Source of the DNA: Candidatus Latescibacterota bacterium
Lineage (GTDB): Bacteria; Latescibacterota; UBA2968; UBA8231
Length of the DNA stretch: 64,000 nt
Reading direction: 5' to 3'
Assembly (NCBI GenBank): GCA_965261395.1
Contig: OZ253462.1
Span: 2,208,001 to 2,272,000, forward strand
A program made the position numbers and the translations under genes. Positions 16,666 to 48,812 of this stretch are shown here, one piece after another. The notes under the pieces were generated by a model. The model had not been told where the DNA came from and searched no databases. It was given only the letters and a program-made list of their open reading frames with translations. Position 1 is the stretch's first letter. Each line of letters opens with the position of its first letter.

Positions 16666-19472
16666 TTAACGAGGCGGCACTTTATTCATTACCCTCCGCC
16701 TCCTCTTCCGCTTCCCTGTCGCTTCCGCCGCTAGCGGTGCTTGCGACTGCTCGTAAAGCGTAAAGAGATGCTCTACGCGCTCTCGCTCCGAGGCGAAGCG
16801 TGCGCGGCGATAGAGGCCGTCCACAGCGCGGTCGAGGGCTGAGTGCGCTCGACGCAAATCGGGCGGCATCGCGTCTGGGTCGTAGAGATCGGCGAGCGTA
16901 GCGTCAGGATGGTTGGCGCGGGCGGCGAGGACGGCGTCGGCATGGGGAGCGAGGCGTTCTAGGTCTTTCTCGGAAACAAGTGGGAGAGGGAAGGTGTTAT
17001 AGACGACGCCTATGGAATAGCGGTAGTCGCTTTTGAGCCGCCCGCCGAAATGTCGCATCCACGCCATGTGCATAGCCGAGGTGAGTAGGGCGAACGTCGG
17101 CTTGGTTGCATTGACGAGGACGCGGACGAGGTTACTTGGAACGACCGGAGGTTCTAGCCAGCCTATGGGCACATATTCGCGCCGTTCGGAACTCACTTCC
17201 GGGATGACCAAGAACGGGGCATCGGGGATGACGTTGACGTGGTAAAGCGTTGGTGTTTCCGCCAGCTTGCGAGTTGGTGCGCTTTTGCTTTGTCGCCGAA
17301 AGGCGCGTACAGCCCGCACACGCTCGTGTAGGGCCGGTGCCTGCCGCAGCAGGTCGGGCGGTGCCTCGCCGAGCCACAGAATCCAACGCTCGCCACCGTT
17401 GAGGTATTCCCAAGCACCAATGAACGGGCGAACATAAGGCGCAGCCTTTGGGCACTCCGCTAACAACGCATCGCGCTCGTCCGCATCTAAGATGTAATGG
17501 CCGCCATCAATCGGCTTCGACCCAATGATGAGCTTCGCCAGCCCATTGATCGGCTGACTCTCCGTGCCCACGACCAAATGCGGATTGGCCAGCCCGCCGC
17601 CGTCGAACAGATAAGGCGTGATTGCCGCGAAGCTAGCTTCCTCCGGCTCGCCGTTGATGTCGGGATAGGCAAACAGCCGCTTTTCCTTGCGTGCCGTTTC
17701 CCGTTTGTCCAGTCCGATAATCACCACGTGAACATGCGCCTTGCCGCGTGCATCCGAACCCCAAGCAAACGTGGGTGAGCAAAGGCAATGTCGAGGCGGC
17801 AGCGGTTGAACAAGACCGGCCAAAGCTGCGCCACCTGCTCGCCCTGCGTAATGGAATTGGTGGCCACGAACCCAATGCGCGGATTGCCTTTCTGCGCGTA
17901 CTCGCCAGCGCGTATGAACCAAGCTGCCACGTAATCAAGGGTGCCGCCGCTGCCGCCAAGCGCAGCGACCTGTTGTACCTGCTTCCGTTGATCGGAGGAC
18001 TGGAGCTTCGCGCCCACAAATGGCGGATTCCCGAATACATACGAACATTCCGCTGGCGGCAGCAGTTCGGCCCAGTCCATTGTTAGCGCGTCCGCGTTGT
18101 GGATGTGCGGCGACTTCTCAATCGGGATACGCGCATAGGTCTGGCCGAACTCTAAGCTCAGCCGGTTGTTCATAATGTGGTCCATCATCCACAGCGCGGT
18201 CTCGGCGATGCGCGCTGGAAACTCGCTAATCTCGATGCCATAGAACTGATCAACGTTGACTACGGAAAGCAACTCGGCGAATGCAGAAAGCTGGCCGGAT
18301 GGGTGCAACTCGCGCAACACCTCGATCTCAAGCTGCCGCAGCTCGCGGTACGCGATGATGAGGAAGTTTCCGCAGCCGCACGCCGGGTCGAGAAACGTCA
18401 ACTGACCTAGTTTTTGTTGGAAAGTGTATAGATCGGGGATGCGGCGGTTGTCGCGCCGGGTCTTCAGGCGTGCAAACTCGGCCCGCAGGTCGTCTAAAAA
18501 CAGCGGCTCAATCACCTTGCGGATGTTCTGCTCGGTGGTATAGTGGGCACCCTGGGCGCGGCGCTCGGCTGGCTCCATCACCGATTGGAACAGCGCGCCG
18601 AAGATGGCCGGGGAAATCGCGGTCCAGTCGAACAAGCAAGCGTCAATGAGGCTCTGACGCATTTCGGCGTCGAAATCGGGGATGCGAAGCGGTTCGGCGA
18701 ACAACTCGCCATTGACATACGGGAAGCGCGCCAAGTCCTCGTCTAGCTTGGTTTGCCGCCGCTCCTCCGGCGTGTTCAAGACTTGAAACAGTCGCGCTAG
18801 ATAGGGGCCGAGGTCGCTGCCGTCGGGTGAGGTGCGCTCCTCAATGAACTGCAAGAAGATGTCGCGCGGCTCGAAGATGCCGGTGTCGTCGGCAAACAAG
18901 CAAAACACCATGCGCACGAGGAAAAGCTCCAAGTCGTGGCCGTCGTAGCCAGACTCAGCGAGCGCATCGTGCAGGCGAGCAATGCGCTCGGACGCCTCGA
19001 TGTTGACCGGGTCTTGGTCGCGGAATGTGCGCCGCTGCACCCCGATGATGAAGCCGAACTTTTCGACGTACTGCGGCAGGTCGGCGAGGGCAAAGCGCGT
19101 CTCCTCGCGCTCATCTCGGTCGAGCAGTTCAAAGGTCTGAAAGTCGCAGAGCAGTTGGTAGCGGGGGCGGTCGCGCTCAGGCAGTGCATCGAAATAGGTA
19201 CCGGCCTGTTTACGTGCGGCGGTAAGGTCGCGGCCCGCGCTCTTTTGCTCGACCAGCAACACGCCCGGCCAGAACAGGTCAATGAAGCCGTGCGAGTTGT
19301 CCAAACGGCGAACGTGCTCCTCATAGCGCGCAACCGTGCGGCGACGCACGCCGAAGATCTCAAAAAACTCGTTGTAGAAGCTTTGGGTCTCGCCGCTCTC
19401 ATAGGTCGCGTTGGCCCACTCCGAGGCGAATTGGGCGGCGCGGGAGCGGATTTCGTTCCATGAAAGGCGCAT
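16666..19472 (-). pseudogene. MmeI/YeeA-like type IIL restriction-modification enzyme split by one frameshift
   Basis: Nuclease motif FIDLFWPGVLLVEQK, GAHYT, motif I LDPACGCGNF, motif IV GNPPF and a C-terminal TRD (GGRLKSDYRYS, LADLYDP..MP). Frameshift near 17774 where AH-R-TFAW reads cac cc acg. Confidence 0.88.
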
Positions 19473-19546
19473 GGCGATGGGTTCTACGCTGGCTTGCTAC
19501 TGAAATAGTTGCGTCTTTGCGACGAGCGAAGACGGCGAGTTCCCTG

Positions 19547-19663
19547 CTAGGAATGGCGGATACATTGCGAACAGATTATCCACGCTAAGATTCTTCCCGA
19601 CGCCGCTTGCTGTCTATAAAAAAGATACAGTAGCGGTGACGTGTTGCTGATGAACTCAGACAT
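19547..19663 (-). pseudogene. Truncated DUF3368/PIN-domain toxin remnant
   Basis: ATG overlaps the end of the UPF0175 gene and reads MSEFISNTSPLLYL (typical DUF3368 start), then diverges and stops at 38 aa. Confidence 0.7.
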
Positions 19664-19907
19664 GCTTGCGTTCTAGGTCGTTCAACTCCGTCTCAAGTGG
19701 AAAGACCTTGTAGCGATCAAGCGTCAACAGAAATTCTACGCGCGCCATCCCGGCAAGCTCCGCAGCTCGCCCAGACGAAAGACGGCCAAGCTCGTAGAGC
19801 TTGACTGCGGCTAGCATACGGAGTTCACGTGCAAAGGCGCGCTCGTCGGTCTTCGCGGCCAGCAGTACGCTCTCTGGAACATCGATTGCGATTTTCCGCG
19901 TTGCCAT
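19656..19907 (-). CDS. UPF0175 family putative antitoxin
   Basis: AAVKLYELGRLSSGRAAELAGMARVEFL signature. GAGGAG RBS before ATG 19907. Confidence 0.88.
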   Translation of the reverse strand: MATRKIAIDVPESVLLAAKTDERAFARELRMLAAVKLYELGRLSSGRAAELAGMARVEFLLTLDRYKVFPLETELNDLERKHV

Positions 19908-19966
19908 TCTCCTCGCCCTTTTGATCACCTGAGTAGCGAACTATGAGATAGCGTTATAGCAACGCC

Positions 19967-20701
19967 CTATTGAAACAACTGCACCGTCGGCTTGATTACC
20001 AAGAGGGGCACGCAGGCGCGGGGCGGTAGTGAGGCGACGAAGAGCGCGGCTTGGGCCAGCTCTTCAGGTTGCAGCATGGCGGCCCGGCGTTGGGCGCTGA
20101 CGGGTTCGGGCCGCTGGGCCAAAATTGGCGTCTCTACCTCGCCGGGACAGATTGCGCAGGCGCGGATGCCGGACTCGACTTCCTCTTCGTTAATCGAGTT
20201 CGTCAGCGCTACCGCCCCGTGCTTGGAGGCCGAATACGCGGCACCGGCCAGCTTGCTGGCCCGCAGGCCGGCGATGGACGAAATGGTGATGATGAGGCCG
20301 TCGTTTTTTTGCCGCATCCCCGGCAACACCACCCGCGCCATGTTGTACACCCCAGTGAGATTGATGGCAATGGTCTGGTCCCAGTCCTCGGGTGCCACGT
20401 CGCCGACTGCGCGCGGATTGGTGTTGATGCCGGCGTTGTTGACTAGGACATCGACGGCACCCCACTTGGCCTCGACGGTGGACGCTAGGGCCTCGACCGC
20501 GCTGCGGTCGGATACGTCGCAGGCGTGGAGCAGAATCCGGTCGGCATCAAGGCCAGCGGCCGCAGTGGAGAGCGGTTCAGGACGTCGCCCGACAAACGCC
20601 ACCCGCGCTCCTGCGTCGGCAAAACCGCGTGCTATAGCCGCGCCGATCCCAGTGCCCGCGCCGGTTACAACAACAACTTTATCGACGAATTGCCGCATCA
20701 T
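19967..20701 (-). CDS. SDR family oxidoreductase
   Basis: [17 protein letters not shown]. Confidence 0.92.
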
Positions 20702-22167
20702 TCTGCTCCCTTTTTAAGTGCCTGTAAGCGCTGGGCTTCCTCGCGCTGCTTGTAAAACGAGTCGAGGGGAAAGCAGCCCGAAATCATGCCGTTGCGCGGC
20801 GCGGTCGTGCAATCGGAAAACGTGCGGCAGATGACGCGGCGTTGCAGTTGGCCCGTTTGCAGCACGTCGCAGGGCAGGTCGGGATAGGACAGAACCATCC
20901 GCCCTAAGCCGATAAAATCCACCATGCCTGCCCGTACGAGGGCCTGCCCCACGTGCGGCAGGTACTCCTGCAAGTAGGAATAACCCGACCCGACGAACAG
21001 GCTGCGCGGAAAGCGCGCCTTGAGCCGGGCGACCATTTCTACTTGCCGCGCCACTCCGCACAGTGGGTCTTCCGGCGGCAGGTACCCATCGGAAGGGGGA
21101 AAGAGCGCCGGTCGCTGGATGTGCGGATTGTAATAAGGGCTGCCGCAGGACAAGTTGAACAGGTCCACGCCCAAGCTCTCCAACAAGGCGATGAACTGCT
21201 CGGCCTCGCCTAAGTCCATTTGCCGTGGGTCGCCCTGATCGACCCCAAAGCCGTACTCGTAGGGCAGGCAGTTTTGATACGGCTCGGGCACTCCATGCCC
21301 CGGCTTGCCGTCGATACTCGCGTTTGGATCGGGCTGGAAGGGCACCAAGTCGAAGGCGCTCAGCCGCACGCCGATACCGAGGCCGGGTGCTCGGTTGCGG
21401 ATCCCCTCGATGATGCGGCGGACAAAGCGCGTGCGATTGGCAAACGAGCCACCAAAGGGGCCGGGCCGCGTAAACGCGCTGAGGAATTCGTGCCCTAGGT
21501 AGCCGTGGCAATGCTTGATGTCCACGAAGTGATAGCCCAGTTCATGGGCGATTTGCGCACCGGCGACGTAGCGATCGATCAACTCCTCGATATAGGCGTC
21601 CGTCAGGAGCGGATAGTCCGCGTCAAGGCCGAATTTGCGATCCAGAATCGGGTGGTGATAGAGAATGGCCGGCGCGGATTGGTCCTTGCGATAGGGCCGA
21701 CAAAACCGCCCCGAATGCGTCAGTTGCAGGCCGAGGAGCAGATCGTCGGTGGTGCCAAACTGCTCGCGGTGTGCCGACAAGAGGATGTCGCGGAGTTCGG
21801 CCATGCCAGCGCGGTTTTCCTCGCGCGCCATAAGCTGGTTCGGGTTGGCGCGGCCCTCGGGTGCCACGGCGAATGCCTCCCCGCCCCAGATGAGCTTGGC
21901 CCCGCTGCGCCCGAAATTCCGCCAGCGACGGCGCGTCAAGTCGCTCGGCTGGCCGTCTTCAGTCCCATCCCATCCCTCCATCGGCTGAATGGCAAAGCGA
22001 TTGCCGATGCGGATGCCGCCGGGGTACGCGGCTTGGGCCAGCGGGGAAGAGGGTGCGGTTTCGATCTGGTCGTCGCAGGGCAATTCCGCGCCCAAATGGG
22101 CCAAGTGGGCGCGAAAGTCCGCTGCCCGCTTAAAGCTGGAGATGCGCGGATAGCGCGTCTTGGCCAT
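20698..22167 (-). CDS. NADH:flavin oxidoreductase (old yellow enzyme family)
   Basis: [43 protein letters not shown]. True start is MAKTRY at 22167, overlapping the lgt stop. Confidence 0.9.
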
Positions 22168-22919
22168 TAAGAGGCCTCCCGGCGTTGCAGGTACAGCATC
22201 AGCCCCAAACCGAAGGCAATCATGGCGAGGCTGAGGAGCTGGGCTTGGCTCAGGCCCCACAGTACGCGCGGGTTGACCCGAATGAACTCCACCAAGAACC
22301 GCGCTAGTCCGGCGAGGATGAGATAGAAGCTGAACGACAGACCCGGGGGCTTGAAGCGGGTCCGCATCTTCCACAAGAAGGCAGCGATCCCCAAGTGGGC
22401 GAGGGTTTCGTACACGGGAGCGGGATGGACCTTTTCAAGGGTTGGCACCACCCCGTTGGGATAGGCCATGCCCCAGGGAAGATCCGTCGGCACCCCGTAG
22501 TCGCCATCGCCGGCGAGCTGGCAGCCGATCCGCCCGATCCCGTAGCCCACGGCAATTGCAATGCCCAACGAGTCGGCGACTTGGCCCAGCGGCGCACTGT
22601 GGCGGCGAATTTGCCACAGCGTGCCGGCAGTGGCGACGACAAATCCCCCGTACCAAGTCAAGCCGTAGCCAGAAAACAGCAGGTCGAACACCTCATCCCA
22701 GGTCTCAGGCGACGTTTCAAATAGCACAAAGTAGAGCTTGGCTCCGACGATCCCGCCGACCATGCAGGTGGTGACAATCGTCGATCCCAGCTCGTCGTGT
22801 AGCCCTTGGCGCTTGAACTCGCGGTTGAGCACACGCAGGGCCGCCAAGAAACCAAGGGCGACCATGAGGCCAAACGTGCCGATGCTAATGGGGCCGATCT
22901 CGAATAGGTAGGGATACAT
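22167..22919 (-). CDS. lgt: Prolipoprotein diacylglyceryl transferase
   Basis: [52 protein letters not shown]. Confidence 0.9.
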
Positions 22920-22921
22920 AA

Positions 22922-25900
22922 TCAGATGTTTTTGCGGCCCAGCGCCTCGATCTGTCGCTTAAGTGCTGCGGCGATCTCGTAGTAGATCTCATAGGGACTC
23001 AACGCCTCGGCGCGCCCTTTGAAAGAGGTCGTTTCTAGGGGGGGGCCAAAAAGCAGGCGCAAAGGGTGACGCGCTGGTGTGCGCGTCCCCTTGGGCAAGG
23101 CTTCGCGGGTGCCGGCAATGTGCAGGGGCACTACGGGCATGTCCAGCTCGTAGGCCAAAAGCCCCACGCCCGCCTTAAACGGCTGTAGCTGATCGTTGAC
23201 TGAGCGCGTGCCTTCGGGAAAGACCAGCAGCGGGCGGCGCACCCCCATCAATTGCCGCGCCCGCACCAAGCCGGCGGCAAAATCACCGTGGCCGTCGAAG
23301 GGGACGGCGTTGGCAAAGGTGTACAAAAACCAGCGCAGCTCGGAGTCGGCAAGGTAATGCTCGCTGGTTGCGATATTGAGGTGATCTACATGGGAGCGCA
23401 CGGCTGAGTACACGCAAGCACCGTCGAGGTGGCTGGCGTGGTTGGCGGCAATCAGGTAGGGCCGATCTTGTGGCAAGTGCTCTAGGCCACCGGCCCGGAG
23501 GTCGAAAAAGCGGCGGAACAAGGGGCCGCCGGCCTCCCACAGGAATTCTTGCAGCATCTTTTTGCCGGCCTCGCTCTCTGGCTCGGCACTCGGCTCGGCC
23601 TGCAAGATGCCCGACCAGTACGCCGGCGACTGCTCCACCTCCCAGTCCACCCCATCGCTCAAGTGAGCCTCCAGCCGCGCCAAGACGCTGCGGAGCGTGT
23701 CCTGTGGCTGCAAAAGTCCATCGACTTGGACCCCCAGCCGCTGGCCGAGCCACGCGGCGAACTCCACTGCCATCAGCGAATCCAACAAGGTGTCGAGCGG
23801 CGCGTCTATGTGAGCTGCTACCTCCCCAGTGCTCAGACCAGCGAGCAGGCCGATTTGGCACTGGATCGCCCGCTCCCATTGCGGCAGGGCCGTGTCTGGG
23901 CAGTCTTCGCGCTCGATGGCGGTCAACAGGGTTTGGCGGTCTACGGTGCCGTCGTCCAGCCTTGGCAGCGGTTGGGTCCAAAAGTGCAGGCGTTGGATCC
24001 GCTGGTGGCTGGGCAAGGTGCGCGAAATCTCGTATGAGCGCGCTTGGATGGCCTCGCGCAGGGCTTCGACTTCCTCGGAGTCGCGGTTGATTACGGCCAC
24101 GCCGCGCACTTCTTCACCTTCGGTGCGAGCCGAGGGCACGCCGACCACGGTCAGCTCGGCCACGTGCGGCAGTCCGTGGTAGAGCAATTCGATTTCGCGT
24201 GGATAGACGTTGTGGCCTGCTCCATTGACGATCAGGTCTTTGCTCCGCCCCTCGACGAAGAGATAGCCGTCGTCTAGGCGGCCGACATCGCCGGTGTGTA
24301 GCCACCCGTCGCGCAACACCGCTTGGGTCAGTTCTTCTTGGGAAAGGTACCCCTCCATGACGTTGGCACCCCGCACCAACACCTCGCCGACGCCGCGCTC
24401 GTCTGGCTCGGCGATCTGCACTTGCTGCCCAGGCAGCACCTGCCCCACCGACCGGGCTTTGCCCTGCTTAGGCACGTTGACCGCCACGATCGAGGCCGCT
24501 TCGCTCAGGCCATAGCCTTGGCAAATCGCCACGCCGAGACGCTCGTAAGCGTCGAGGAGGTCGTCGGACAGGGTTGCGCCGACGCTGACGACCCGCCTCA
24601 GAGCCGCTAGTGCAGCCGTGGCCTCCGTGGCCTCGGCCCCGAGGCGCTCGACGCGGTCGGCCAAGACGCGCAACAGGCGCGGCGCGGTCAACAGCATGGT
24701 CGTACCCGTATCGTGCAGGGCGCGGAGCATCTCGCGGCTGTTGACGGCCTCTAAATACGTGATGGTGGCCCCGCTGAGCAGCGGCAGCAGCAAGCCGCCC
24801 GTGAATTCGAGGACTTGGTGCAGGGGCAGGGTCGAGAGCATGCGGTCGGATTCGTAGATGCCCAGCACTTCGCCTTGGGCTAGGACGTTGCAGATGAGAT
24901 TGCGATGGCTCAACACCACTCCGCGCGGCTCGATGACCGAGGTAAAGAGGATCGACGCTGTGGCGTCTGGCCCGACCCGCGGCGACTTCCAGCGGCTGGC
25001 TCCGCCGGCTGCGGCCGGCTCGGGAGCGTGCCCGAACGGCAGACCGTCGCGATCTACATTGAAAAAGGCCATCTCCTTGTGGGCAGCTACGCCCTCGGGC
25101 GAGAGCAGGGAAAAGCGCTTTTCCGCCGCAATTAGCGCCCGTGCTTGGACAAAGTCGCACAGTGCCCAGATGTCTTCCTCGCGCGTCTGCGGGTCGATGG
25201 GCACGACCGCTAGCCCGAGCAGGCTGGCCGCCATGTAGGCGATGACCCACTCCGGCCCGTTGTCCCCGCACAGCAGAACCCGCGCATCGGCCGACACGCC
25301 CTGCGCTTGCCAACTGCGCGCCATGCACTCGGCGCGAGTGAGCAACTCGTCGTAGCTGATCCGCGTCCAGCCGGCGCGGCGTTCGATTTGCAAGGCCGTT
25401 CTGGCGGCGTAGCGGCCGCAGGCCCAGCGCAACAGGTCCGGGATCGTGCGGATGCTTTCCTCGATGCGCCAGCGCTGTTCCTCGCCCCCCACTTCGCTCG
25501 GAGCCGCGCTCAACGGCTCGCGGTCGTCGTCGGTTCCGCCCAGTTCGTGGCGCCGCAGGCCGGGCAGGTGGGTCCTTTGATAATATTGATACCAGTCAAT
25601 CCGCCGCACGTCCATGTTGAAGATTCGCTGCTCTTCGGGGGACAGCGACTCGTAGAGGGCCAACATGCGCTTGGTTTCATAGCGGCAGTCGAGGGTCGTG
25701 TACGGGCTGAATAAGTCGGTGAAGTACTGGACGCGCTTGAGTCGCGTCTTAAGCGCGGCCAAGCGGCGTTTTTTCTGGGCCGGTGCCCAGCGCTCGGGCA
25801 GGTACTCGTAGAGCTTTTGCTTTATCTCCAGAGGATAGAGGTACTTCCAGTTGAAGGCGCGCTGGAAGCGGGCCACCGTCGGGAAGGTCCAATCCACTAG

Positions 25901-27124
25901 CTCGGGCCGCGAGCCGTCTTTGTTGAGGAGGGGGTGTTCCTCAAAGTAGCCTTTTACGTACTTGAACATCCGGGTGTTGGGCAGTGGGTTTTCCTCGCTG
26001 GTTGCCGCGTGGAATACCTCCACTTTAGAGGCCGTGGCCTGCGTGGCCGCGGCCAGCACGGTATTGACGACGATGTCCACGGGCACCAAGTCCATGGGCG
26101 CACCGCCTGCGGCCGGGAAGTCCGGGACAATCCCCCGCCCGTAGGCCACGATTAGTGGATCGGTTACTTTGAGGCCGTGGATCCAGCCTGGATGTGGATC
26201 TTCGAGCGCGCCTTCGGTGACGCTGGGCCGCACGATGGCCAGCGGCACTTGGTCGCGGTGCTTGACGAGTAGCTGTTCGCCCATGGCTTTGGTAAAAGTG
26301 TACACGTCATTCCAGCCATGCTGCCGCGCTCGGCGCATCCCCTCCTCGACCAGCTCGCGCTCGATCCAGCGGCGACAGCGGTCGTCAACCAGCTTTTGCA
26401 AGCGGCTGTCAGAAAGTTTGCGGCTATGGCTCTGCTCGACGATCTCGTGGCGGAATGCTTGCTGTTGCTCGGCGCTTTGCGCTTGGGCGCGGATTGCACG
26501 GCAGCGGGCTTGCGCTTGGGCGATCTCTTCTTCGGGGACGAAAGGCTGTGGAGGCGTGTTGCCGTCGATCAGGTGTTGAATAGTGCGATTGATCGGAAGT
26601 GTTTGCTCGGGGATGGTGCCAGTGAGGCGGCCGTTGACGTATGCGGTTGATACGTGTACTAAGACGGGCTTTTTGCGGCCTTCGCGGGCCAGCCGCAAAA
26701 GCTCCTGAGGTGCCAAGGTGTTGAATTGGATCGCCGAGTCGAGCGGTTCGTCAAAGGTGACGCTAGCCGCATTGCCGATGATGAGGTCAACTTCCGCTAG
26801 CAGCTCGTCGCGGGATGCGTCGTCTAGCCCGAGGCCTGGCTGCCGCATGTCGCAGGCGAGGGCGCGCACCTTCTGTCGCACCGCGGCAAAGGCGGCTGGC
26901 TCCTCGCGGCGAAAGCGGTCGAAGACGACTAGCTTGAAAAGCTCGTCTAGCCGCTCCTCTACCGGCAGCGCGGCCCCGCCAGGACTCCGACCGGGCCGCA
27001 ACACGAGGTACAAGCACCGCACGCCGGGCAAATAGCGCAGGATCTTGGCCGTCAGCCCCTGCCCGTAAAACCCGGTGCCGCCGGTCAGCAACACGGTGCG
27101 GTCCTGATAGAATTCTCTGATCAT
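22922..27124 (-). CDS. ElbD-like multidomain lipid enzyme: fatty acyl reductase + AMP-binding domain + ACP + PlsC-type acyltransferase
   Basis: FAR motifs TGGTGFYG, HVSTAYV, YTFTK, IVRPS, DLVPVD; adenylation motifs YGLSE, GWLHTGDVG, GRSKDLI; carrier LDSLMAVE; acyltransferase NHASHLD and FPEGTRS. Start taken as MIREFY at 27124. Confidence 0.9.
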   Translation of the reverse strand: MIREFYQDRTVLLTGGTGFYGQGLTAKILRYLPGVRCLYLVLRPGRSPGGAALPVEERLDELFKLVVFDRFRREEPAAFAAVRQKVRALACDMRQPGLGLDDASRDELLAEVDLIIGNAASVTFDEPLDSAIQFNTLAPQELLRLAREGRKKPVLVHVSTAYVNGRLTGTIPEQTLPINRTIQHLIDGNTPPQPFVPEEEIAQAQARCRAIRAQAQSAEQQQAFRHEIVEQSHSRKLSDSRLQKLVDDRCRRWIERELVEEGMRRARQHGWNDVYTFTKAMGEQLLVKHRDQVPLAIVRPSVTEGALEDPHPGWIHGLKVTDPLIVAYGRGIVPDFPAAGGAPMDLVPVDIVVNTVLAAATQATASKVEVFHAATSEENPLPNTRMFKYVKGYFEEHPLLNKDGSRPELVDWTFPTVARFQRAFNWKYLYPLEIKQKLYEYLPERWAPAQKKRRLAALKTRLKRVQYFTDLFSPYTTLDCRYETKRMLALYESLSPEEQRIFNMDVRRIDWYQYYQRTHLPGLRRHELGGTDDDREPLSAAPSEVGGEEQRWRIEESIRTIPDLLRWACGRYAARTALQIERRAGWTRISYDELLTRAECMARSWQAQGVSADARVLLCGDNGPEWVIAYMAASLLGLAVVPIDPQTREEDIWALCDFVQARALIAAEKRFSLLSPEGVAAHKEMAFFNVDRDGLPFGHAPEPAAAGGASRWKSPRVGPDATASILFTSVIEPRGVVLSHRNLICNVLAQGEVLGIYESDRMLSTLPLHQVLEFTGGLLLPLLSGATITYLEAVNSREMLRALHDTGTTMLLTAPRLLRVLADRVERLGAEATEATAALAALRRVVSVGATLSDDLLDAYERLGVAICQGYGLSEAASIVAVNVPKQGKARSVGQVLPGQQVQIAEPDERGVGEVLVRGANVMEGYLSQEELTQAVLRDGWLHTGDVGRLDDGYLFVEGRSKDLIVNGAGHNVYPREIELLYHGLPHVAELTVVGVPSARTEGEEVRGVAVINRDSEEVEALREAIQARSYEISRTLPSHQRIQRLHFWTQPLPRLDDGTVDRQTLLTAIEREDCPDTALPQWERAIQCQIGLLAGLSTGEVAAHIDAPLDTLLDSLMAVEFAAWLGQRLGVQVDGLLQPQDTLRSVLARLEAHLSDGVDWEVEQSPAYWSGILQAEPSAEPESEAGKKMLQEFLWEAGGPLFRRFFDLRAGGLEHLPQDRPYLIAANHASHLDGACVYSAVRSHVDHLNIATSEHYLADSELRWFLYTFANAVPFDGHGDFAAGLVRARQLMGVRRPLLVFPEGTRSVNDQLQPFKAGVGLLAYELDMPVVPLHIAGTREALPKGTRTPARHPLRLLFGPPLETTSFKGRAEALSPYEIYYEIAAALKRQIEALGRKNI

Positions 27125-27134
27125 GGCGGAAACG

Positions 27135-27182
27135 GAAAAAAGCCCCATCCTGTGCAGCGAGTGGCCCGTCAGGACAGGGCTT
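27135..27182 (-). terminator. Terminator-like hairpin immediately upstream of the ElbD-like start
   Basis: Minus strand AAGCCCTGTCCTG-(17 nt)-CAGGATGGGGCTT-TTTT. The 13-bp stem has two G-U pairs that only form on the minus-strand RNA. Confidence 0.6.
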
Positions 27183-27227
27183 AAAATGCTGTAATATAGA
27201 AGGCGGGGTGCCCTCCCACAAGGAGGC

Positions 27228-27374
27228 TCACTGCGCGGGACGCTTGGGATCGCGGCCCTTGCTATCGCGCCGATTTCGGTCTAGCCCTTGCTTGGTGATA
27301 TAGGGGTGTTCGACCTGTTTTTCCAGTTCGCGGCGCTGGTCGGCCCAATCGATGTCTCGTTTTCGCTTGGCCAT
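27228..27374 (-). CDS. Small basic hypothetical protein (48 aa)
   Basis: Manual translation MAKRKRDIDWADQRRELEKQVEHPYITKQGLDRNRRDSKGRDPKRPAQ, below the ORF-track cutoff. AT-rich leader upstream, hairpins downstream. Confidence 0.6.
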   Translation of the reverse strand: MAKRKRDIDWADQRRELEKQVEHPYITKQGLDRNRRDSKGRDPKRPAQ

Positions 27375-27439
27375 GTTTTGATATTATCTTTGTTATCTAG
27401 GTTAATCTATGCGCAGGACGGGACGGGACAACCCAAGCT

Positions 27440-28345
27440 ATGTCCAAACACTGGGTCTTGATAGCTAATCCAACGGCGGGCAACGCCCGCGCCCGCAGCG
27501 TCGCCGAGCAAGCATCTTTGGCTATACAAGCCGCCGGCCAAGCGGTCGAATTGCGCTACACGCGGGCCAAGGGCCACGGAACCGAACTGGCGCGGCAGGC
27601 CGTGGCCGAGGGCGCTGAGCGGCTCGTGGTCTGCGGCGGTGACGGCACCATCGGCGAGACACTTGCGCCCCTCGCCGGTTCGCACACGGCCTTGGGGCTA
27701 CTGCCCTGTGGCACGTGCAACGACTTGGCCCGCGCCCTCGCCGTGCCGTTGCGCGTAGAAGCGGCCATAGACAATCTGCTCCGTGGCGAGGTGCGCGCCA
27801 TAGACTTGGGGCGGGCTGGCGACCGCTTCTTCGCCACAATTGCCGCCTTTGGCTTTGACGCCGAAGTCAACCGCCGCATGGAAAGCGCCCAAGGGCCTCT
27901 GTCCGGGCGGCCCCGCTATATCTTGGAAGCGTTGCGGCACATCGTTCGCTACCAGCCAATTCGGGTCCGCCTTTGCGGCGATTTCGGGGAGATTGAGCAA
28001 GAGGTGCTGCAAGTATCTACCGCCAATGCGCGGAACTATGGAGGCAATCTGTGCGTTGCCCCAGATGCCGACCTCGGCGATGGCCTCTTCGATGTGGTCG
28101 TCGTCGATGCGGTGCCACGGCGGGCGATCTTATCGCTGATGCTCCGCCTCTTTTGGCAAGCACACGTCCGCCATTCAGCCGTGCGCGTCGAGCGCACGGC
28201 CCGCCTAACGCTGCACACCGACGCGCCGCACCGCGTATATGCGGACGGCGACTATCTAGATCAGACGCCGCTCGTGCTGGAAATTAGCCCGGCGGCTCTG
28301 CGGGTGGTGGTGCCGAGTTCTTGCTCGCAAGGGGTGCGTTGCTGA
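27440..28345 (+). CDS. Diacylglycerol kinase family lipid kinase (YegS/DgkB-like)
   Basis: ANPTAG, CGGDGT, LPCGTCNDLA, GFDA, YGG, ADGD. Confidence 0.9.
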   Translation: MSKHWVLIANPTAGNARARSVAEQASLAIQAAGQAVELRYTRAKGHGTELARQAVAEGAERLVVCGGDGTIGETLAPLAGSHTALGLLPCGTCNDLARALAVPLRVEAAIDNLLRGEVRAIDLGRAGDRFFATIAAFGFDAEVNRRMESAQGPLSGRPRYILEALRHIVRYQPIRVRLCGDFGEIEQEVLQVSTANARNYGGNLCVAPDADLGDGLFDVVVVDAVPRRAILSLMLRLFWQAHVRHSAVRVERTARLTLHTDAPHRVYADGDYLDQTPLVLEISPAALRVVVPSSCSQGVRC

Positions 28346-28395
28346 TATTGCCCAAGGGGCGGCATTTCAATTACGACTTATTACACAACGTTTTT

Positions 28396-29373
28396 ATGGC
28401 TACCCGAGCACAGCAAATACGCCTTGGCATCTTCTTCTTGGTTTCGCTCTCCGTCCTCGCGCTGTTCTTCTTCGTCGTCGCCGGCAGCCATCTCCTGAGC
28501 CAGCGCGATACCTATTACATCGAGTCCAACTCGCCCGTCAGCGGCCTCAACAAAGGCGCGGACGTCAAGTACTTGGGTTTTAGTATTGGCCGAGTCGAGG
28601 ACATTGCGATCGCGCAGGATCATCTCTCTACTTTGGTAATCGAGATTTCGATCGAGAGGCGGCGGGCCGCAAACGCCATCCGCACCGACACGCAAGCGCG
28701 CATGGCCTCGTTGGGGATCACCGGCCTGAAGTTCATCGAGCTTTTCGGCGGCAGCGACGACGCTTCAGTCCTCCCTCCGGGGTCCACCATTGTCGCGGGT
28801 GATACTTTTTTTAGCAGCATGCAAGAGCGTGCCGAAGTGCTCAGCATCAAGGTGGAGCAAACCATCGACAACCTAAACGCGTTGTTCAGCAGCGAAAACC
28901 AGCGCGTCTTCACCGAGACGCTGAACAACGCGGGCAATCTGCTGGCCACGGCCAACGCGCTGGTCGAGGACAACCGCTCCGCATTCGACGAGACCGCGGC
29001 CAATATGGTTGCCACCAGCCGCTCGTTCGCCAAGACCAGCGCGACGTTGGAGACGACGGTCGATTCCCTGCACGCCTTACTCGTGGGCGCGAAGCTGCAA
29101 CAGACGGTTGACGACCTGCAAGTGACGATGCACAAGTTGCGCCAGCAAATGGACGGCCCGGTTCCCTTGCTTATCGCGCGGATGGACACCGTGATGGGCC
29201 ATATTGACCGGACCTTTGTGGGCATCGACCAGACCGTGGGGGCCAGCCGACAGAATCTCCTGCGCGCCATGCGGGAACTGGAGGAAACTTTGCAGAATAT
29301 CCGCGAAACCACCGAACTAATCCGCGAGAATCCCGCGGTACTCATCCGAGGTCGCAGTGGTGGGACCCAATAG
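28396..29373 (+). CDS. MlaD/MCE family protein with long helical C-terminus
   Basis: N-terminal TM, VSGLNKGADVKYLGFSIGRV, GITGLKFIEL, C-terminal ENPAVLIRG. Confidence 0.9.
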   Translation: MATRAQQIRLGIFFLVSLSVLALFFFVVAGSHLLSQRDTYYIESNSPVSGLNKGADVKYLGFSIGRVEDIAIAQDHLSTLVIEISIERRRAANAIRTDTQARMASLGITGLKFIELFGGSDDASVLPPGSTIVAGDTFFSSMQERAEVLSIKVEQTIDNLNALFSSENQRVFTETLNNAGNLLATANALVEDNRSAFDETAANMVATSRSFAKTSATLETTVDSLHALLVGAKLQQTVDDLQVTMHKLRQQMDGPVPLLIARMDTVMGHIDRTFVGIDQTVGASRQNLLRAMRELEETLQNIRETTELIRENPAVLIRGRSGGTQ

Positions 29374-30124
29374 CCGAATTCGCCGCTGCGGTCAGGCCAT
29401 CATCTTGGCCGCCGCTCTATCCGGCTGCGCCCAGTTGCTAGGCGGCGACGCTAAGCTGCTGCAACGGCGCTATTTCAAGTTGGATATCGAACCCTTGCGC
29501 GGTAGCTTGGAAGGTTCCGAGCGTCCGTACCCTTTCCGATTGCAGGTCAAGGGCTTTGAGGCGCCCCGAGCGTATGACCGCACCCACATCATCCACCGCC
29601 GAGACCAGTACGAACTGCAGCTCGACAACCTCCACCACTGGATGGAGCGCCCCGGCGACATGATTACCGACGCGGTCAAGCAGTACTTGCGCCAAGCTGA
29701 CCTCTTTACCTATGTCGGCGGAGATGGCGATTTTTTCGAGCACCGCCCGGATTACGTGCTCGGCGGCTCAGTCAAAGCCATCGAGCGCTTCGACAGCGGC
29801 GACTTGTGGGCAGCCCATCTCGTTATGACGATGGAACTGGTTAGGCAGGACGATGGCAAAGTTATATGGCAGGACGATTTCGACGAGGAGAAACAGGTGT
29901 TTTCCCCGGCCATGATACACACGGTAGCCGCGTTGAGCGGGATTTTGGGCCAGCGGATGAAGAAGGCGATCAGGGAGATTGACTTCAAGTTCAGCAACAA
30001 GCAGCGGCCCATGCCCATCGCGCCCATTGCATCCGACGAGGAAATCGCCCCAGCGGCCCGAGATACAGTGCTGCAAACCGAAGCCGGTCACTACGAACTC
30101 ATACCGGGAAAGCTGGCCCCCTAG
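29357..30124 (+). CDS. ABC-type transport auxiliary lipoprotein (PqiC-like)
   Basis: Lipobox LSGC, YDRTHIIHR, HHWMERP; lies directly after the MCE gene. Confidence 0.8.
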   Translation: MVGPNSRIRRCGQAIILAAALSGCAQLLGGDAKLLQRRYFKLDIEPLRGSLEGSERPYPFRLQVKGFEAPRAYDRTHIIHRRDQYELQLDNLHHWMERPGDMITDAVKQYLRQADLFTYVGGDGDFFEHRPDYVLGGSVKAIERFDSGDLWAAHLVMTMELVRQDDGKVIWQDDFDEEKQVFSPAMIHTVAALSGILGQRMKKAIREIDFKFSNKQRPMPIAPIASDEEIAPAARDTVLQTEAGHYELIPGKLAP

Positions 30125-30132
30125 GACTTGGC

Positions 30133-31638
30133 ATGTACAAGCTACTCTACATCCTGATCGCCCTGCCGTCGCTCGCTGGCCCAGCCCTAGGCGACAGCTA
30201 CACTTGGATCGCCCCACCCGGGCGCGGCCAACTCGAACAGGACCCAACGCTGATTCCCAAGGGCAAGGGCTTTCTCTTCGTGCCGACGATGTCCGGCTCC
30301 CTCAACGAGCCCAGTTTCCTCGTCTTACAGGGCAACAAACCCATCCGCGAAGCCGCCCCCGGCACCGGCGTGTTGCTCTCGCCCGGCAACTACGAATTGC
30401 TGGTCGGCTCGGGCACGGACATTCAGATGACGAGCCGCACCGTGCCGATCCAAGAGGGCATGACGACCCTGGTAAAGCCCTTCTGGGCCGGACTAGTCAT
30501 CAACGTCATGTCCGAGAACCGCACATCGATCAACGAATCCTATGAACTGTACCGGGAATCCTCGCAGGAAAACTACGGCCTCGGTTTTGGTGTCGAGGAG
30601 GAGCGAGGCGAAGCGGTCAAAACTTGGCTCCTGCCTCCAGGCGTTTACTCAGTAGTGCAAGTCGGCGACAACGTATTAACCACCCGCAAGTTTAGCGTCC
30701 GCTTAGAGCCGGGCGAGTTGGTCCAGCGCAACCTAGTAGTGGACACCAGTGACGATACCTTCATCGGCTTCTACCCCCCGGCTCAGCATGGCCTCCTCGC
30801 CCAAGTGGATGGCCCGCGTTGGAAGACCTCCCTTCAGTTAAGCGGCTCGCCCCGGCTGTCCACCTCGCAAAATAAAACCGGCGCAGATCGCTCGGTCCTC
30901 GCGCTCTCCGCTGAGATCTTCGGCAGCAGCATCTATAATACGGACCGCCACTACGCCAATCTGCGGCTGGACTTTGAAGAGGGTTTCACCCGCGAGGAGG
31001 GCGATGACTTCCGCAAGTCCGTCGATGAGTTTGAGGTCCGCGCTACATATATCTACCGGCTTTCCAAGCGAATCGGCCCCTATTTGCGCGGGGTGTTCAA
31101 CACCAAGCTATTCGCCGAGGAGGAACGCTTCGACCAGCCGCAGAGCCTGCTGATCCGCGACGGCAACCAGATCGAAGCCATGGCGGGCATTAGCGAATTT
31201 ACCCTCTCTCCGCCCTTCAGCCCCCTCGAACTGCGCCAAGGCATCGGCATCAACGCCCAGGTTATCAGCAGCTTTCCCCTGAACCTCGACATGCGCGTTG
31301 GTTTTGGGGCGCGTCAAAGCTATTTTACCGATACCTATGACCTAAACTCCTCCGGAACCACCGCCCGCAAGTTGGAGGACCAGACCGCCACCGGCTTGGA
31401 GGCCGTGCTGCTCCTCCGGTCGCGTTTTTCGCGATTCCCCAGCTTGGATTCGGAGTTTGACCTCCTTATCCCGGAGACGGCTACCGACACTTGGGAATTC
31501 ACTTGGGAAAACCGCTTGCGCTTGCCGCTGAGTCGCTTCATCAACATGGTCGTCGTCTTCGACTTCGAGCGCAAGCCGCCGGTCCAGCGGCTGCAATCTG
31601 AACAACAGGTCCTGCTGCGCCTCAACTATTTGCTATGA
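30133..31638 (+). CDS. Putative outer-membrane protein: N-terminal beta-sandwich domains plus C-terminal beta-barrel
   Basis: Signal peptide, alternating-residue strands in the C-terminal half, and an ending QQVLLRLNYLL that resembles a beta-signal. Confidence 0.6.
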   Translation: MYKLLYILIALPSLAGPALGDSYTWIAPPGRGQLEQDPTLIPKGKGFLFVPTMSGSLNEPSFLVLQGNKPIREAAPGTGVLLSPGNYELLVGSGTDIQMTSRTVPIQEGMTTLVKPFWAGLVINVMSENRTSINESYELYRESSQENYGLGFGVEEERGEAVKTWLLPPGVYSVVQVGDNVLTTRKFSVRLEPGELVQRNLVVDTSDDTFIGFYPPAQHGLLAQVDGPRWKTSLQLSGSPRLSTSQNKTGADRSVLALSAEIFGSSIYNTDRHYANLRLDFEEGFTREEGDDFRKSVDEFEVRATYIYRLSKRIGPYLRGVFNTKLFAEEERFDQPQSLLIRDGNQIEAMAGISEFTLSPPFSPLELRQGIGINAQVISSFPLNLDMRVGFGARQSYFTDTYDLNSSGTTARKLEDQTATGLEAVLLLRSRFSRFPSLDSEFDLLIPETATDTWEFTWENRLRLPLSRFINMVVVFDFERKPPVQRLQSEQQVLLRLNYLL

Positions 31639-32729
31639 CGTGGGTGCAGAGCGACGAACAGGGAATCGCGCTCGGGCGCGCGCTTTCGCTACACACTATC
31701 GGCGCGCTCGTTCCCCAAGTCCGCGATCTCATCGCCGAGCATCCGCGCTCCGCGCTCCGCGCTGACTTGCGCCAAGTCGAACACCTCGACACCGCGGGAG
31801 CCGTCTTCCTGCGCGGCTTGCCCGATCTCGCCCGCTCCTTGGACAAGGAACTCCGCCTCGATGGGCTACCCACCCACTTGCAGCCCGTTTTCGACTTTGC
31901 CACGCCCGCGCCGCCGCTTGAGCCGCCCGTGCCGCGCCGCGTCGCTCTTGAACGCCTCGGCGCGTGGGTCCGCGCTTGGGGCGTCCGCGCCGCTGATTTT
32001 CTCTACCTGATGGCCGACCTGAGCGTTTTCTCGGTCCTATCCCTGTTTCGCCGCGATCAGATCCGCCGGGGCAGCTTTGGCGAGCAAGCGTACGCGATTG
32101 GCGCGCAGGCCCTGCAAATCGTCGGACTGGTTCTCTTTCTCGTCGGCGCGGTTTCGGCCCTTCAGTCCGCGGCCCAGCTCCGCCAGTTCGGGGCCGATAT
32201 TTTCGTCGCCAACCTGCTGGGCATTGGCCTGACCCGCGAGTTGGGGCCGCTGATGACCGCGATCATGGTGTCTGGCCGCTCCGGGTCGGCCATTGCCGCC
32301 GAGATCGCCACCATGAAGTTCACCGAGGAATTGGACGCCTTGCAGACTATGGGGATCGACCCGCTGCGCTTTGTGGCCGTGCCCAAGCTGTGGGCCATGA
32401 TTGTCTGCATGCCGCTTTTGACGATCATGGCCGACTTTGTTGGCATCCTCGGCGGCACCTTCATCGGCATGGTGTCGCTGGACATCCCGGCTACTGTGTT
32501 TCTCAACCAAGTCTTCTCGTCGCTCTTCCTCAAGGACTTGCTCACCGGGCTGGTCAAAAGCGCGTCTTTTGCGTGGCTTATCACGATCATCTCGGTTTAC
32601 CACGGCCTCAATTTCAGCGGCGGGGCCGAAGGCGTCGGCCGGGCAACGACCTCGGCGGTCGTGTCGTCGCTGTTCGGCATCATTGTCCTCGACGCTTTTT
32701 GGGGCATTGTCTTTTATTTCAAATGGTGA
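31635..32729 (+). CDS. mlaE: MlaE-family ABC permease with N-terminal STAS (MlaB-like) domain
   Basis: VEHLDTAGAVFL (STAS), RELGPLMTAIMVSGRSGSAIAAEIATMK, GVGRATTSAVV. Confidence 0.9.
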   Translation: MTWVQSDEQGIALGRALSLHTIGALVPQVRDLIAEHPRSALRADLRQVEHLDTAGAVFLRGLPDLARSLDKELRLDGLPTHLQPVFDFATPAPPLEPPVPRRVALERLGAWVRAWGVRAADFLYLMADLSVFSVLSLFRRDQIRRGSFGEQAYAIGAQALQIVGLVLFLVGAVSALQSAAQLRQFGADIFVANLLGIGLTRELGPLMTAIMVSGRSGSAIAAEIATMKFTEELDALQTMGIDPLRFVAVPKLWAMIVCMPLLTIMADFVGILGGTFIGMVSLDIPATVFLNQVFSSLFLKDLLTGLVKSASFAWLITIISVYHGLNFSGGAEGVGRATTSAVVSSLFGIIVLDAFWGIVFYFKW

Positions 32730-33469
32730 CCCACGCCATCGACATCCAAGACCTCTGCGTGTCCTACGGCGAGACGGCCGTCCTGCGCGGGATTGACGCG
32801 CACGTGGATGAGGGGGAAATCGCCGTCGTGCTCGGTGGCAGCGGCTGCGGCAAGAGCACCTTGCTCAAGGCGATCATCGGCTTGGTGCAACCCGCCTCGG
32901 GCCGCGTCGAAATCCTCGGCCAAGACGCGACGGCCCTCGGCGAGGAAGAGCTGGCGGCCCTGCGCAAGCGGTTGGGCGTGATGTTTCAATACGGCGCGCT
33001 GCTCAACTCGTTGACGGTTGAGCAAAACGTCGCCCTGCCCTTGGAAATGCACACGGACCTAGAGCCGGCCCTGATTGGGGAGATCGCGCGCACTCGGCTC
33101 GCCTCGGTGGGCTTAGGGCACGCTTGCGACCGCTATCCAGGCGAGTTGTCGGGCGGGATGCGCAAACGCGCCGCTCTCGCACGGGCCATGGTCATGGACC
33201 CGGAGATTCTCTTCTGCGACGAGCCGGGCGCGGGCCTTGACCCGGTCACCGCCGCCGAAATCGACGCGCTGCTCCTCACGCTCAACCGCGAGCTGGGCAT
33301 CACCCTCGCCATTGTCACCCACGAGTTGCTCAGCATCGAGCGGCTCGACGGCCGTCTAATCATGCTCGACCAAGGTCTCGTAGCATTTACCGGCACGGTT
33401 GCCGAGGCCAAGTGCTCGGAGCATCCGGTCGTCCGCTCTTTCTTTCACCCATCCGATTCGTCCGCATGA
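32723..33469 (+). CDS. mlaF: MlaF-family ABC ATP-binding protein
   Basis: GGSGCGKS, FQYGAL, LSGGMRKR, DEPGAGLDP. Start MVTHAI at 32723. Confidence 0.9.
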   Translation: MVTHAIDIQDLCVSYGETAVLRGIDAHVDEGEIAVVLGGSGCGKSTLLKAIIGLVQPASGRVEILGQDATALGEEELAALRKRLGVMFQYGALLNSLTVEQNVALPLEMHTDLEPALIGEIARTRLASVGLGHACDRYPGELSGGMRKRAALARAMVMDPEILFCDEPGAGLDPVTAAEIDALLLTLNRELGITLAIVTHELLSIERLDGRLIMLDQGLVAFTGTVAEAKCSEHPVVRSFFHPSDSSA

Positions 33470-45606: not shown

Positions 45607-46305
45607 ATGCGCGTACTCGTAACCGGCGCGGCTGGTCGCGTCGGATCTACCGTAGCCCGCGGCCTGCAAGCGCGTCACGAGGTGCGCGGCCACGACCGCG
45701 TGCCCATGCCCGACCTCGCCGATACAGTCGTCTCCGACCTCGCCGATTTCGACTCTATGTTAGAAGCCACTCGCGGCGTGGACGCCGTCGCCCACATTGG
45801 GGGTCTGCCCGGCGGTAACGAGTGGGAGACCATGCTACAGGGCAACTTCATCGGCACGTACAACGTGTTTGAGGCTGCCCGCCAAAACGGCGTCAAGCGC
45901 GTCGCCTATGCCAGCCGCGCCGGGGTCTTAACCCTCTATCCGCGCAGCATCCGCCGCACGGTCGAGATGACTACCACCCCGGTGGGCATCTACACGGTTA
46001 GCAAGGTCTTCGCCGAGGCTTTGGCCCACTCTTTTGCCCATCAGCACGATATGGAATTTGTCTGCGTGCGCATCGGCAACTTCAACCTCGATCGAGACCA
46101 ACCCGAACATCCACATCATCTCAGCCACGGCGATTGCGTGCGGGTGTTTGAGCAGGCGCTGATCCATCCGGGCGTAAAGTTTGAAATCGTCTTTGGGGTG
46201 TCGGGTAGCAACTGGCCGCTCTACGACGTCGAACACGGCAAAAGGGCGATTGGCTACGAGCCGCAGGATTATTCGGAGGTGCCGGAGGAGGAGTGGGGGA
46301 GGTAG
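45607..46305 (+). CDS. NAD-dependent epimerase/dehydratase (uronate-dehydrogenase-like)
   Basis: TGAAGRVG, GTYNVFEAA, YTVSK, VRIG. Confidence 0.88.
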   Translation: MRVLVTGAAGRVGSTVARGLQARHEVRGHDRVPMPDLADTVVSDLADFDSMLEATRGVDAVAHIGGLPGGNEWETMLQGNFIGTYNVFEAARQNGVKRVAYASRAGVLTLYPRSIRRTVEMTTTPVGIYTVSKVFAEALAHSFAHQHDMEFVCVRIGNFNLDRDQPEHPHHLSHGDCVRVFEQALIHPGVKFEIVFGVSGSNWPLYDVEHGKRAIGYEPQDYSEVPEEEWGR

Positions 46306-46570
46306 GGGCCGTTTAGACTGCCAATGAGACGCCGACGGCTGTAAAGCGCGTTGGATGATTGGGATTGAGACGATGGGGCACTCTTGCTTGACGAGTCTCG
46401 ACATAGGAAGTATTGTGTAACCCAAGTATAAATTACCTAACAGCCATGCTGGACCAGAAGGAGTTTTTCGGGCATATCTGGCCAATTGGTTGGGTATGAG
46501 AGACATGGGCCGAACTTCAATAGTCTCTGTTCTCTCTATGGACTGCTTTTGTGAGGATAAAAATTAAGCG

Positions 46571-48637: not shown

Positions 48638-48812
48638 TGGAACTACCATGCGTACCCGACTACTGACGTGTGAACTGATCGGACTCTCTGAAAAGTTCAC
48701 ACAGTTCGTCGCCGAGATGAACAGCTTTGTTTTGGATGTCGCTATGCTGATTTGTATTGAGATGATCGGCTGGCCTATATCAGTAAAATAATACCCGTAG
48801 AGGAAAAAGATA

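Follow-up and report, generated by a model that had tools for sequence, protein, structure and literature searches.

A probable fatty acyl-CoA reductase of an AGPS-type ether-lipid route in a degenerate ElbD-family fusion from a Latescibacterota bacterium

Our subject is an ElbD-like multidomain gene and its neighbour lgt in a window of 64,000 nucleotides from a Candidatus Latescibacterota bacterium (assembly GCA_965261395.1, contig OZ253462.1, positions 2,208,001 to 2,272,000); positions are those of the window unless another contig or locus is named. The source genome (G000) is a single 6.55-Mb contig (C1), 95% complete with 8% contamination. An earlier note on this DNA had taken the gene for an ElbD-like ether-lipid multienzyme and the Lgt for a possible builder of ether-anchored lipoproteins. 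The best explanation we can offer, with a probability of roughly 0.6 from sequence comparisons, is that this ElbD-family fusion carries a non-adenylating adenylation (A) domain and acts mainly as the FAR (fatty acyl-CoA reductase) of a eukaryote-like AGPS ether route. Since the A domain is without key catalytic residues, the fusion would most likely be just the supplier of fatty alcohol to an ether-lipid pathway encoded elsewhere in the genome. Published work is cited here from excerpts of each paper.

The ElbD-like protein and its degenerate adenylation domain

That one chain of about 1400 residues holds FAR, adenylation, acyl carrier (T or ACP) and acyltransferase (AT) domains was borne out by Pfam and, for the carrier, by its DSL serine and a structural model. 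The features of the gene are as follows.

22922..27124, minus strand: ElbD-like gene, FAR-A-T-AT, 1400 aa (open reading frame, Pfam and alignment)
25529..27124, minus strand: FAR domain, residues 9-540, Rossmann GxxGxxG and YxxxK intact
23894..25453, minus strand: adenylation-fold (A) domain, residues 566-1085, A5, A7 and A8 kept, A3 and A10 degenerate
24917..24946, minus strand: degenerate A3 P-loop, residues 735-744, two residues short, no GTTG, Arg for Lys
23936..23965, minus strand: degenerate A10 motif, residues 1062-1071, Thr1068 at the catalytic lysine position
23654..23881, minus strand: carrier (T/ACP) domain, DSL serine S1124 (motif and model)
22949..23533, minus strand: PlsC-type AT domain, HX4D (H1237-D1242) and FPEG intact

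The open reading frame (ORF) is open to a first ATG at 27148 (22922-27148, 1408 aa); the second ATG at 27124, with which the starts of relatives agree, gives 1400 aa. Residue numbers are those of the 1408-aa form. Pfam places NAD_binding_4 at 21-363, Sterile at 466-534, AMP-binding at 574-935 and Acyltransferase at 1220-1344, and the FAR domain is the only strong PF07993 match in the genome. Pfam PP-binding has no match to the carrier domain, which is a helical bundle in the model and whose more distant relatives do match PF00550; its S1124 DSL aligns with the DSL of myxobacterial proteins. Across the genus all four domains are in frame. The dN/dS over 22 genus sequences is 0.117 for FAR, the most constrained domain, 0.21-0.22 for A, and about 0.15 for T and AT (0.151 for AT).

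What the earlier note missed is the degeneracy of the A domain. In all 46 close relatives the P-loop is two residues short with Arg in place of Lys, and the A10 lysine is absent from each of the 45 that were scored (the 46th was unscored), its position holding T, A, S, I or V. The next 43 homologues have Lys in 2 cases and Arg in 5, with 4 unscored, and none of the 13 scored family fusions from fetched genomes has the lysine, which 117 of 120 myxobacterial-type proteins keep. This tally is a positional count and catches lysines in non-standard contexts (the G053 fusion described below, P0082, P0087, P0145 and one f3 ligase). In ANL enzymes these are residues that handle ATP; the A10 lysine is the key catalytic one in adenylation, and mutating the P-loop costs up to 2,000-fold in activity (PMC8388817). 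Going by its motifs, the A domain can most likely no longer activate acyl chains with ATP; elsewhere in the genome there is a distinct gene for a long-chain acyl-CoA ligase whose P-loop is intact. Lysine-less forms are also present outside the family, in 23 of the 32 next-nearest homologues. ElbD-like fusions outside the family with lysine-less A domains include P0094-P0103 and P0096-P0120, one of them from a named Acidobacteriota.

AGPS-type ether-lipid genes in the genome and class

The setting of such a reductase becomes apparent in three sister families, where a standalone FAR heads an operon with an unannotated protein of about 650 aa, an FAD oxidase and an SDR oxidoreductase. The FAD oxidase is AGPS, with an E-value of 2.5e-156 to mammalian AGPS. 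In the source genome a 646-aa HX4D protein lies at C1:747 kb, and AGPS, directly followed by an SDR, lies at C1:3211 kb. This AGPS matches mammalian AGPS (4bby) with an E-value of 1.7e-148 and keeps the HHH motif and the active-site residues. Given these residues, the SDR and the HX4D acyltransferase, the synthesis of alkyl-glycerol lipids that the earlier note proposed appears probable.

L128:6986-8926 (G000 C1:746985-748922): HX4D acyltransferase, 646 aa, unannotated, with a large helical N-terminal part

The histidine in the HX4D motif of this protein is invariant. The best structural match to its model (pLDDT 91.5) is PlsC of T. maritima (E 2.7e-5), with GPATs and PatA next, and in the ESM Atlas the best matches, at 0.84-0.85, are to acyltransferase clusters, which we treat as a lead only. 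Sequence searches of PDB and NCBIfam with its relatives found nothing. There are 190 homologues at E<=1e-5, and the named ones all come from Latescibacterota or Gemmatimonadota metagenome-assembled genomes (MAGs).

A search of the source genome did not find PlsY, PlsX, PlsB GPAT_C or GpsA. Among 114 genomes of the class, the ElbD-like or FAR gene was matched in 113 (in one only by its C-terminal part, at a contig edge), the HX4D protein in 112 and AGPS in 107, and PlsY and GpsA were matched in none; PlsX had 2 matches, 1 over the cut-off. The 36 other genomes of the phylum gave FAR in 3, the HX4D protein in 2, AGPS in 1, PlsY in 29, GpsA in 29 and PlsX in 33. All of these counts come from related MAGs and are not independent samples. 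The only strong PlsX match of the class (G142:C8:68072-69016) comes from an assembly with 10 contigs and 7% contamination, where it is on a separate contig. At loci L117, L119, L120 and L124 of families f2 and f4 the FAR operon sits beside ndk, yceD, fabH, fabD and fabF, which is the usual place of plsX.

For the later steps, CdsA, PgsA and PssA are present in the source genome, in which no GpsA, GlpK, GlpD or GlpA was found at the cut-off; GlpK was matched in 4 of the 15 other genomes of the genus. With PgsA present and none of those four, the glycerol 3-phosphate (G3P) for the head group of phosphatidylglycerol (PG) has no recognised source. CarF/PEDS1 (PF10520) was matched in none of 61 genomes, and since the control genomes were also unmatched this allows no conclusion on plasmalogens.

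These genes resemble the eukaryotic peroxisomal route of FAR, GNPAT, AGPS and a reductase of acyl/alkyl-dihydroxyacetone phosphate (DHAP), in that a FAR, an HX4D acyltransferase, an AGPS homologue and an SDR are found here too. MXAN_1676-1675-1674 of M. xanthus is a counterpart of the same AGPS-type route (PMC9131029, PMC13012113). Unlike in the eukaryotic and MXAN_1676-1674 routes, the genes are split over three loci, the FAR is in an ElbD-type fusion and not in a FAR-GNPAT (FARAT) fusion, the acyltransferase is of an unannotated family with a model closest to PlsC, and the standard PlsX/PlsY/GpsA entry was not found in the genome.

The proposed route and its weighing

In the route that we propose, the separate acyl-CoA ligase, or fatty-acid synthesis, would provide acyl thioesters, and the FAR domain, whose motifs are present, would reduce them to fatty alcohol. 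The 646-aa HX4D acyltransferase may, on the strength of its modelled fold, form acyl-DHAP, and AGPS, as its strong homology predicts, would exchange the acyl group for the fatty alcohol. The SDR after AGPS could, from its position, reduce the ketone. The acylation at sn-2 might then be done by the C-terminal AT domain or by a separate 227-aa PlsC-like protein, giving a 1-alkyl-2-acyl phosphatidic acid that would pass to CdsA, PgsA and PssA. Lgt would use whatever PG the cell makes, any ether anchor being a by-product of membrane composition. A bolder version holds that the class starts essentially all its glycerophospholipids via acyl-DHAP and alkyl-DHAP, that its PG is mainly 1-alkyl-2-acyl, that the single Lgt puts alkyl-acyl anchors on every lipoprotein, and that in the present family the fusion provides the fatty alcohol, its A domain having turned into a non-adenylating relay or scaffold that one lineage after another is losing. 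This version is tentative, and we would sooner bet against it as a whole.

Several points weigh against the AGPS route as set out here. AGPS was not found in four of the five g15 genomes nor in G043 (99% complete), despite their FAR and HX4D protein, so it appears that some lineages retain FAR and have no AGPS; nor was AGPS found in G026, G038, G081 and G053. The genome G057 has both routes. Glycerol kinase is over the cut-off in 66 of 111 class genomes, and the acceptor of the HX4D protein could thus be G3P. As for the A domain, motif loss predicts the loss of adenylation without proving it, and five family fusions have Arg at the A10 lysine position. The domain is also under purifying selection in the genus, has a confident fold and has persisted in many genera, which argues that it is not mere dead weight. 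Lastly, the myxobacterial comparison below uses named Cystobacterineae proteins standing in for M. xanthus ElbD, whose own FAR and AT activities are not shown in vitro in the excerpts of PMC9131029.

The purifying selection would fit a reading in which the A domain is a PtmA2-like non-adenylating half-enzyme that moves an acyl group from acyl-AMP or acyl-CoA to T, feeding FAR or AT. The lost P-loop and A10 lysine belong to the first half-reaction, and the protein retains A5, A7, A8 and the serine of T. The A-T model (pLDDT 89.7) superposes best on thioester-forming ANL structures (3cw9 at a root-mean-square deviation of 3.4 and 5bsr at 3.6, most others being at 10-12), although the conformation that AlphaFold settles on carries little weight as evidence. 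PtmA1/PtmA2 offer a precedent for half-reactions that are carried out separately, and PtmA2, like the present A domain, has the ANL fold apparently without the adenylation half-reaction (PMC6594144); it is a weak sequence match to the A domain (E 1.8e-21). Unlike PtmA2, the A domain is inside a multienzyme with a carrier domain and has no linked partner adenylating gene, and A-T is deleted in many relatives. We consider this relay unlikely but worth keeping in mind, and it refines the best explanation rather than replacing it.

About as unlikely is that the cells make mostly ester lipids via the HX4D acyltransferase and a reductase, with FAR and AGPS giving minor ethers, or with FAR alcohols going to wax esters or some other product. 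Acyl-DHAP of the eukaryotic pathway can be reduced directly to lyso-phosphatidic acid, and the lineages that keep FAR and the HX4D protein with no AGPS found are what such a reading would expect. The AGPS route of M. xanthus is minor (PMC9131029), and in a Pontiella that has elbD homologues no ethers were detected (PMC11868695). Speaking for the AGPS route instead, FAR, the HX4D protein, AGPS and the SDR form one operon in the sister families, and AGPS is kept in nearly all class genomes (107/114).

Relation to ElbD and trimming of the fusion

Over its whole length the ElbD-like protein can be aligned with an ElbD-family protein from Stigmatella, at 27% identity over 1504 columns, and its identity to Cystobacterineae proteins is 26-27% in FAR, 29-32% in A and 33-35% in AT. 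Through these proteins the earlier note's match to the domain order of M. xanthus ElbD (FAR-ACS-ACP-AT) is supported by full-length homology to the ElbD family. The ACS and ACP activities of M. xanthus ElbD were confirmed in vitro (PMC9131029). In contrast to it, the ElbD-like protein has no canonical P-loop and no A10 lysine, and its relatives shed A-T-AT. The locus also differs from the elbABCDE genes of M. xanthus in having no elbB, elbC or elbE: a domain scan, made without elbC and elbE query sequences, found no HAD or other elb gene there, as the earlier note had said. In this genome the protein most similar to the HADs that lie near FAR in other families is an HAD-IB hydrolase at 28-31% identity. 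It adjoins a CDP-alcohol phosphatidyltransferase, one of seven PF01066 matches in the genome, the pair being at L132:6180-7480 (C1:5843 kb).

The phylogeny that the earlier note had suggested did not place the protein with ElbD-type proteins of myxobacteria. In quick trees of FAR and A, it falls in a clade apart from the myxobacterial ElbD-type proteins (M. xanthus ElbD itself is not in the trees). A single clade (SH-aLRT 98) unites the family's FARs with the standalone FAR of the AGPS operon, and the myxobacterial proteins lie far from it; the two kinds of FAR are taken to be orthologous. The nearest outgroups of this clade are fusions, so the fusion looks ancestral and the standalone form derived. 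A fusion newly arisen in the genus was rejected, since the fusion is family-wide and the nearest outgroups are fused, and the same quick trees led us to reject the idea that an elbD of myxobacterial origin had replaced the gene horizontally.

The gene was matched in 62 of 63 family genomes (from a draw of 151 genomes of the phylum). In 16 of the 63 there is a FAR-only gene, and one genome has FAR-A and one a decayed FAR-A-AT. The ten FAR-only loci that we fetched are contiguous with their downstream genes, two of them on single-contig assemblies, and the FAR tree (19 family rows) requires five changes between fused and FAR-only forms within the family. At least five family lineages have cut the gene back to FAR. 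The AT histidine motif has also been lost in some fusions (genera g10 and g7). A separate gene for the 227-aa PlsC-like protein is present in 44 of 63 family genomes; apart from g19, every FAR-only or trimmed genus that was sampled (seven in all) carries it.

The description as an ElbD-like multienzyme stands for the family homology and does not stand for a self-contained ElbD-type chemistry. It is quite improbable that this is a working ElbD which activates, reduces and transfers acyl chains alone, its odd motifs being tolerated variants. Colinearity with the Stigmatella protein, the four domains in frame in the genus, and the conserved T serine and AT motifs would suit such an enzyme, but each of the two motifs that handle ATP has changed, the residue in place of the lysine is free to vary (T, A, S, I, V, E, D), A-T-AT has been deleted repeatedly and no elbB-like HAD is linked.

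In Latescibacterota MAGs elbD homologues have been described as standing alone and as co-occurring with agps (bioRxiv 10.64898/2026.06.23.733905), with elbD in 50 and agps in 67 of 92 MAGs (PMC11868695); PMC9426513 likewise covers elbD homologues in such MAGs. FARAT is treated in PMC13012113, in the excerpts of which the phylum Latescibacterota is unmentioned. The elbD and agps homologues of Latescibacterota are thus already published, and what is new is the ElbD-family fusion with a predicted non-adenylating A domain. We found no published account of the degenerate A domain, of the missing PlsX/PlsY/GpsA or of ether-anchored bacterial lipoproteins, subscription journals being outside the coverage. 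In environmental lipid studies elbD BLAST matches are counted as an aerobic ether pathway that is self-contained and distinct from AGPS (bioRxiv 10.64898/2026.06.23.733905, PMC11868695). Given that the elbD match here is apparently the FAR of an AGPS route, with its activation domain disabled, and that lysine-less forms occur outside the family, pathways may be miscounted in elbD screens. Should the class truly lack any other lipid entry, it would be a candidate producer of the monoalkyl glycerol ethers that have been reported from sponges, and a simple system in which to learn whether lipoproteins of bacteria can carry ether anchors.

A full fusion that keeps the A10 lysine was seen in another class (G053, L112:6007-14915), followed by a HAD, a zinc ADH, a LarAH14/15/16 isomerase and a lipid kinase. 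In this genome (96% complete) PlsX, PlsY, GpsA, AGPS and the HX4D protein were not found, and lipid synthesis may begin there solely through the fusion. In L121 the run of HAD, ADH, LarAH and kinase comes after a split form as well.

The lgt neighbour

The coordinates confirm the arrangement given in the earlier note. The ElbD-like stop is 2 bp from the lgt start, the lgt TAA overlaps the ATG of an Old Yellow Enzyme (OYE)-family gene by 1 bp, and that gene overlaps the start of an SDR gene by 4 bp.

22167..22919, minus strand: lgt, prolipoprotein diacylglyceryl transferase, 250 aa, the sole PF01790 match in the genome
20698..22167, minus strand: OYE-family flavin oxidoreductase, 489 aa, a neighbour conserved across the family
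19967..20701, minus strand: SDR oxidoreductase, 244 aa, distinct from the SDR after AGPS
27440..28345, plus strand: divergent YegS/DAGK-family lipid kinase (profile match)
28396..33469, plus strand: Mla/Pqi-type transporter cluster (MlaD, PqiC-like lipoprotein, DUF3078 protein, MlaE-STAS, ABC ATPase ORF), used as synteny control

No second lgt was found in the source genome by hidden Markov model or tblastn. Among the 20 genus genomes with a match, lgt is single in 16, and 4 hold a second, canonical-motif copy. The genome has one lspA and the PG synthesis genes. The GLTWYGG/GRIGC motifs that had been read as a variant Lgt are present, and the residues at the positions of E. coli Y26/H103/N146 are F/Y/C, with the Phe found in all 15 family Lgt sequences examined. 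The equivalents of R143 and R239 are kept, and the PF01790 match is over the cut-off with scores below the NCBIfam equivalog cut-offs. H103Y and N146C are described Lgt variants (PMC13251419), and the family Lgt shares their Y and C and differs in adding Phe at the Y26 position. Among 37 Lgt sequences the Y-for-H and C-for-N forms also occur in families that bear PlsY and GpsA, one of them with the same LTWYGG/GRIGC, and the Lgt of the ether-route families f4 and f2-g26 is of the canonical H/N kind. With the lgt of these two groups the second, canonical H/N copy of some family genomes (L160, L164), too.

We then compared 23 loci from 42 family genomes outside the genus, with one to three per genus. 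The lgt gene follows the FAR gene in 21 of the 23, and of 10 FAR-only loci 9 keep this adjacency after the loss of A-T-AT; one genome with a FAR-only gene has no lgt at this place, and OYE directly follows FAR. Of the loci that could be assessed, 20 of 21 have the OYE gene within the same run and 17 of 19 have the Mla cluster upstream. At the 13 FAR loci outside the family no lgt was found. With lgt linked about as the OYE and Mla neighbours are, this looks like synteny of envelope genes at the level of the family, and little can be learnt from the adjacency of lgt as such. Judged on its sequence and neighbourhood, lgt is a housekeeping enzyme in a family-level gene block. Ether-anchored lipoproteins could still arise by default, via PG composition, without a special enzyme.

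A dedicated ether-Lgt is not supported, given the sole copy, a known motif variant untied to ether genes, and an adjacency no stronger than that of OYE and Mla. The earlier note had looked to linkage in relatives and to lgt copy number to settle this: lgt is indeed the sole copy, and the linkage, rather than being absent in relatives, is conserved within the family. That the operon is a dedicated module whose variant Lgt moves alkyl-glyceryl groups to chosen lipoproteins is very improbable: the 2-bp spacing, the adjacency inside the family, the three differing E. coli-essential positions (PMC13251419) and the second canonical copy in a few genus genomes speak for it, but they are met by the sole lgt here and in most of the genus, the equal conservation of OYE and Mla, the missing linkage at all 13 FAR loci outside the family, the same motifs in a PlsY/GpsA-bearing genome and the canonical Lgt of f4 and f2-g26. 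TLR2, whose recognition the earlier note expected to change, is a vertebrate receptor. A lipobox count gave 114 candidate ORFs; as its control counts lack residue-frequency normalisation, it is not used as evidence.

Transcription and other features of the locus

Co-transcription of the elbD-like gene, lgt, OYE and SDR may be presumed from the gene spacing. RNA-library contigs from four of 22 listed runs (X1, X2, X3 and X5, from two studies) cover parts of both divergent units, and the junction of the elbD-like gene and lgt is spanned by one listed contig; DNA carry-over is possible, and this contig is thus no proof of a single transcript. A scan of 19400-28500 found no promoter, and its 9 terminator-like sites against 8.6 expected are uninformative. 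The 244-aa SDR is a neighbour at >=45% identity in genera g1 and g11 only, and a YegS/DAGK-family kinase is also near FAR loci outside the family (L112, L121 and L124).

Further along the window, an MmeI-type restriction-modification gene lies in two overlapping ORFs (583 and 418 aa, 16666-19472, minus strand), with a small ORF beside it at 19656-19928. The DUF3078 protein of the Mla/Pqi cluster (501 aa, 30133-31638, plus strand) is kept in 22 loci. Positions 46001-54000 form a low-GC island, at 41-52% against about 62% in the surroundings.

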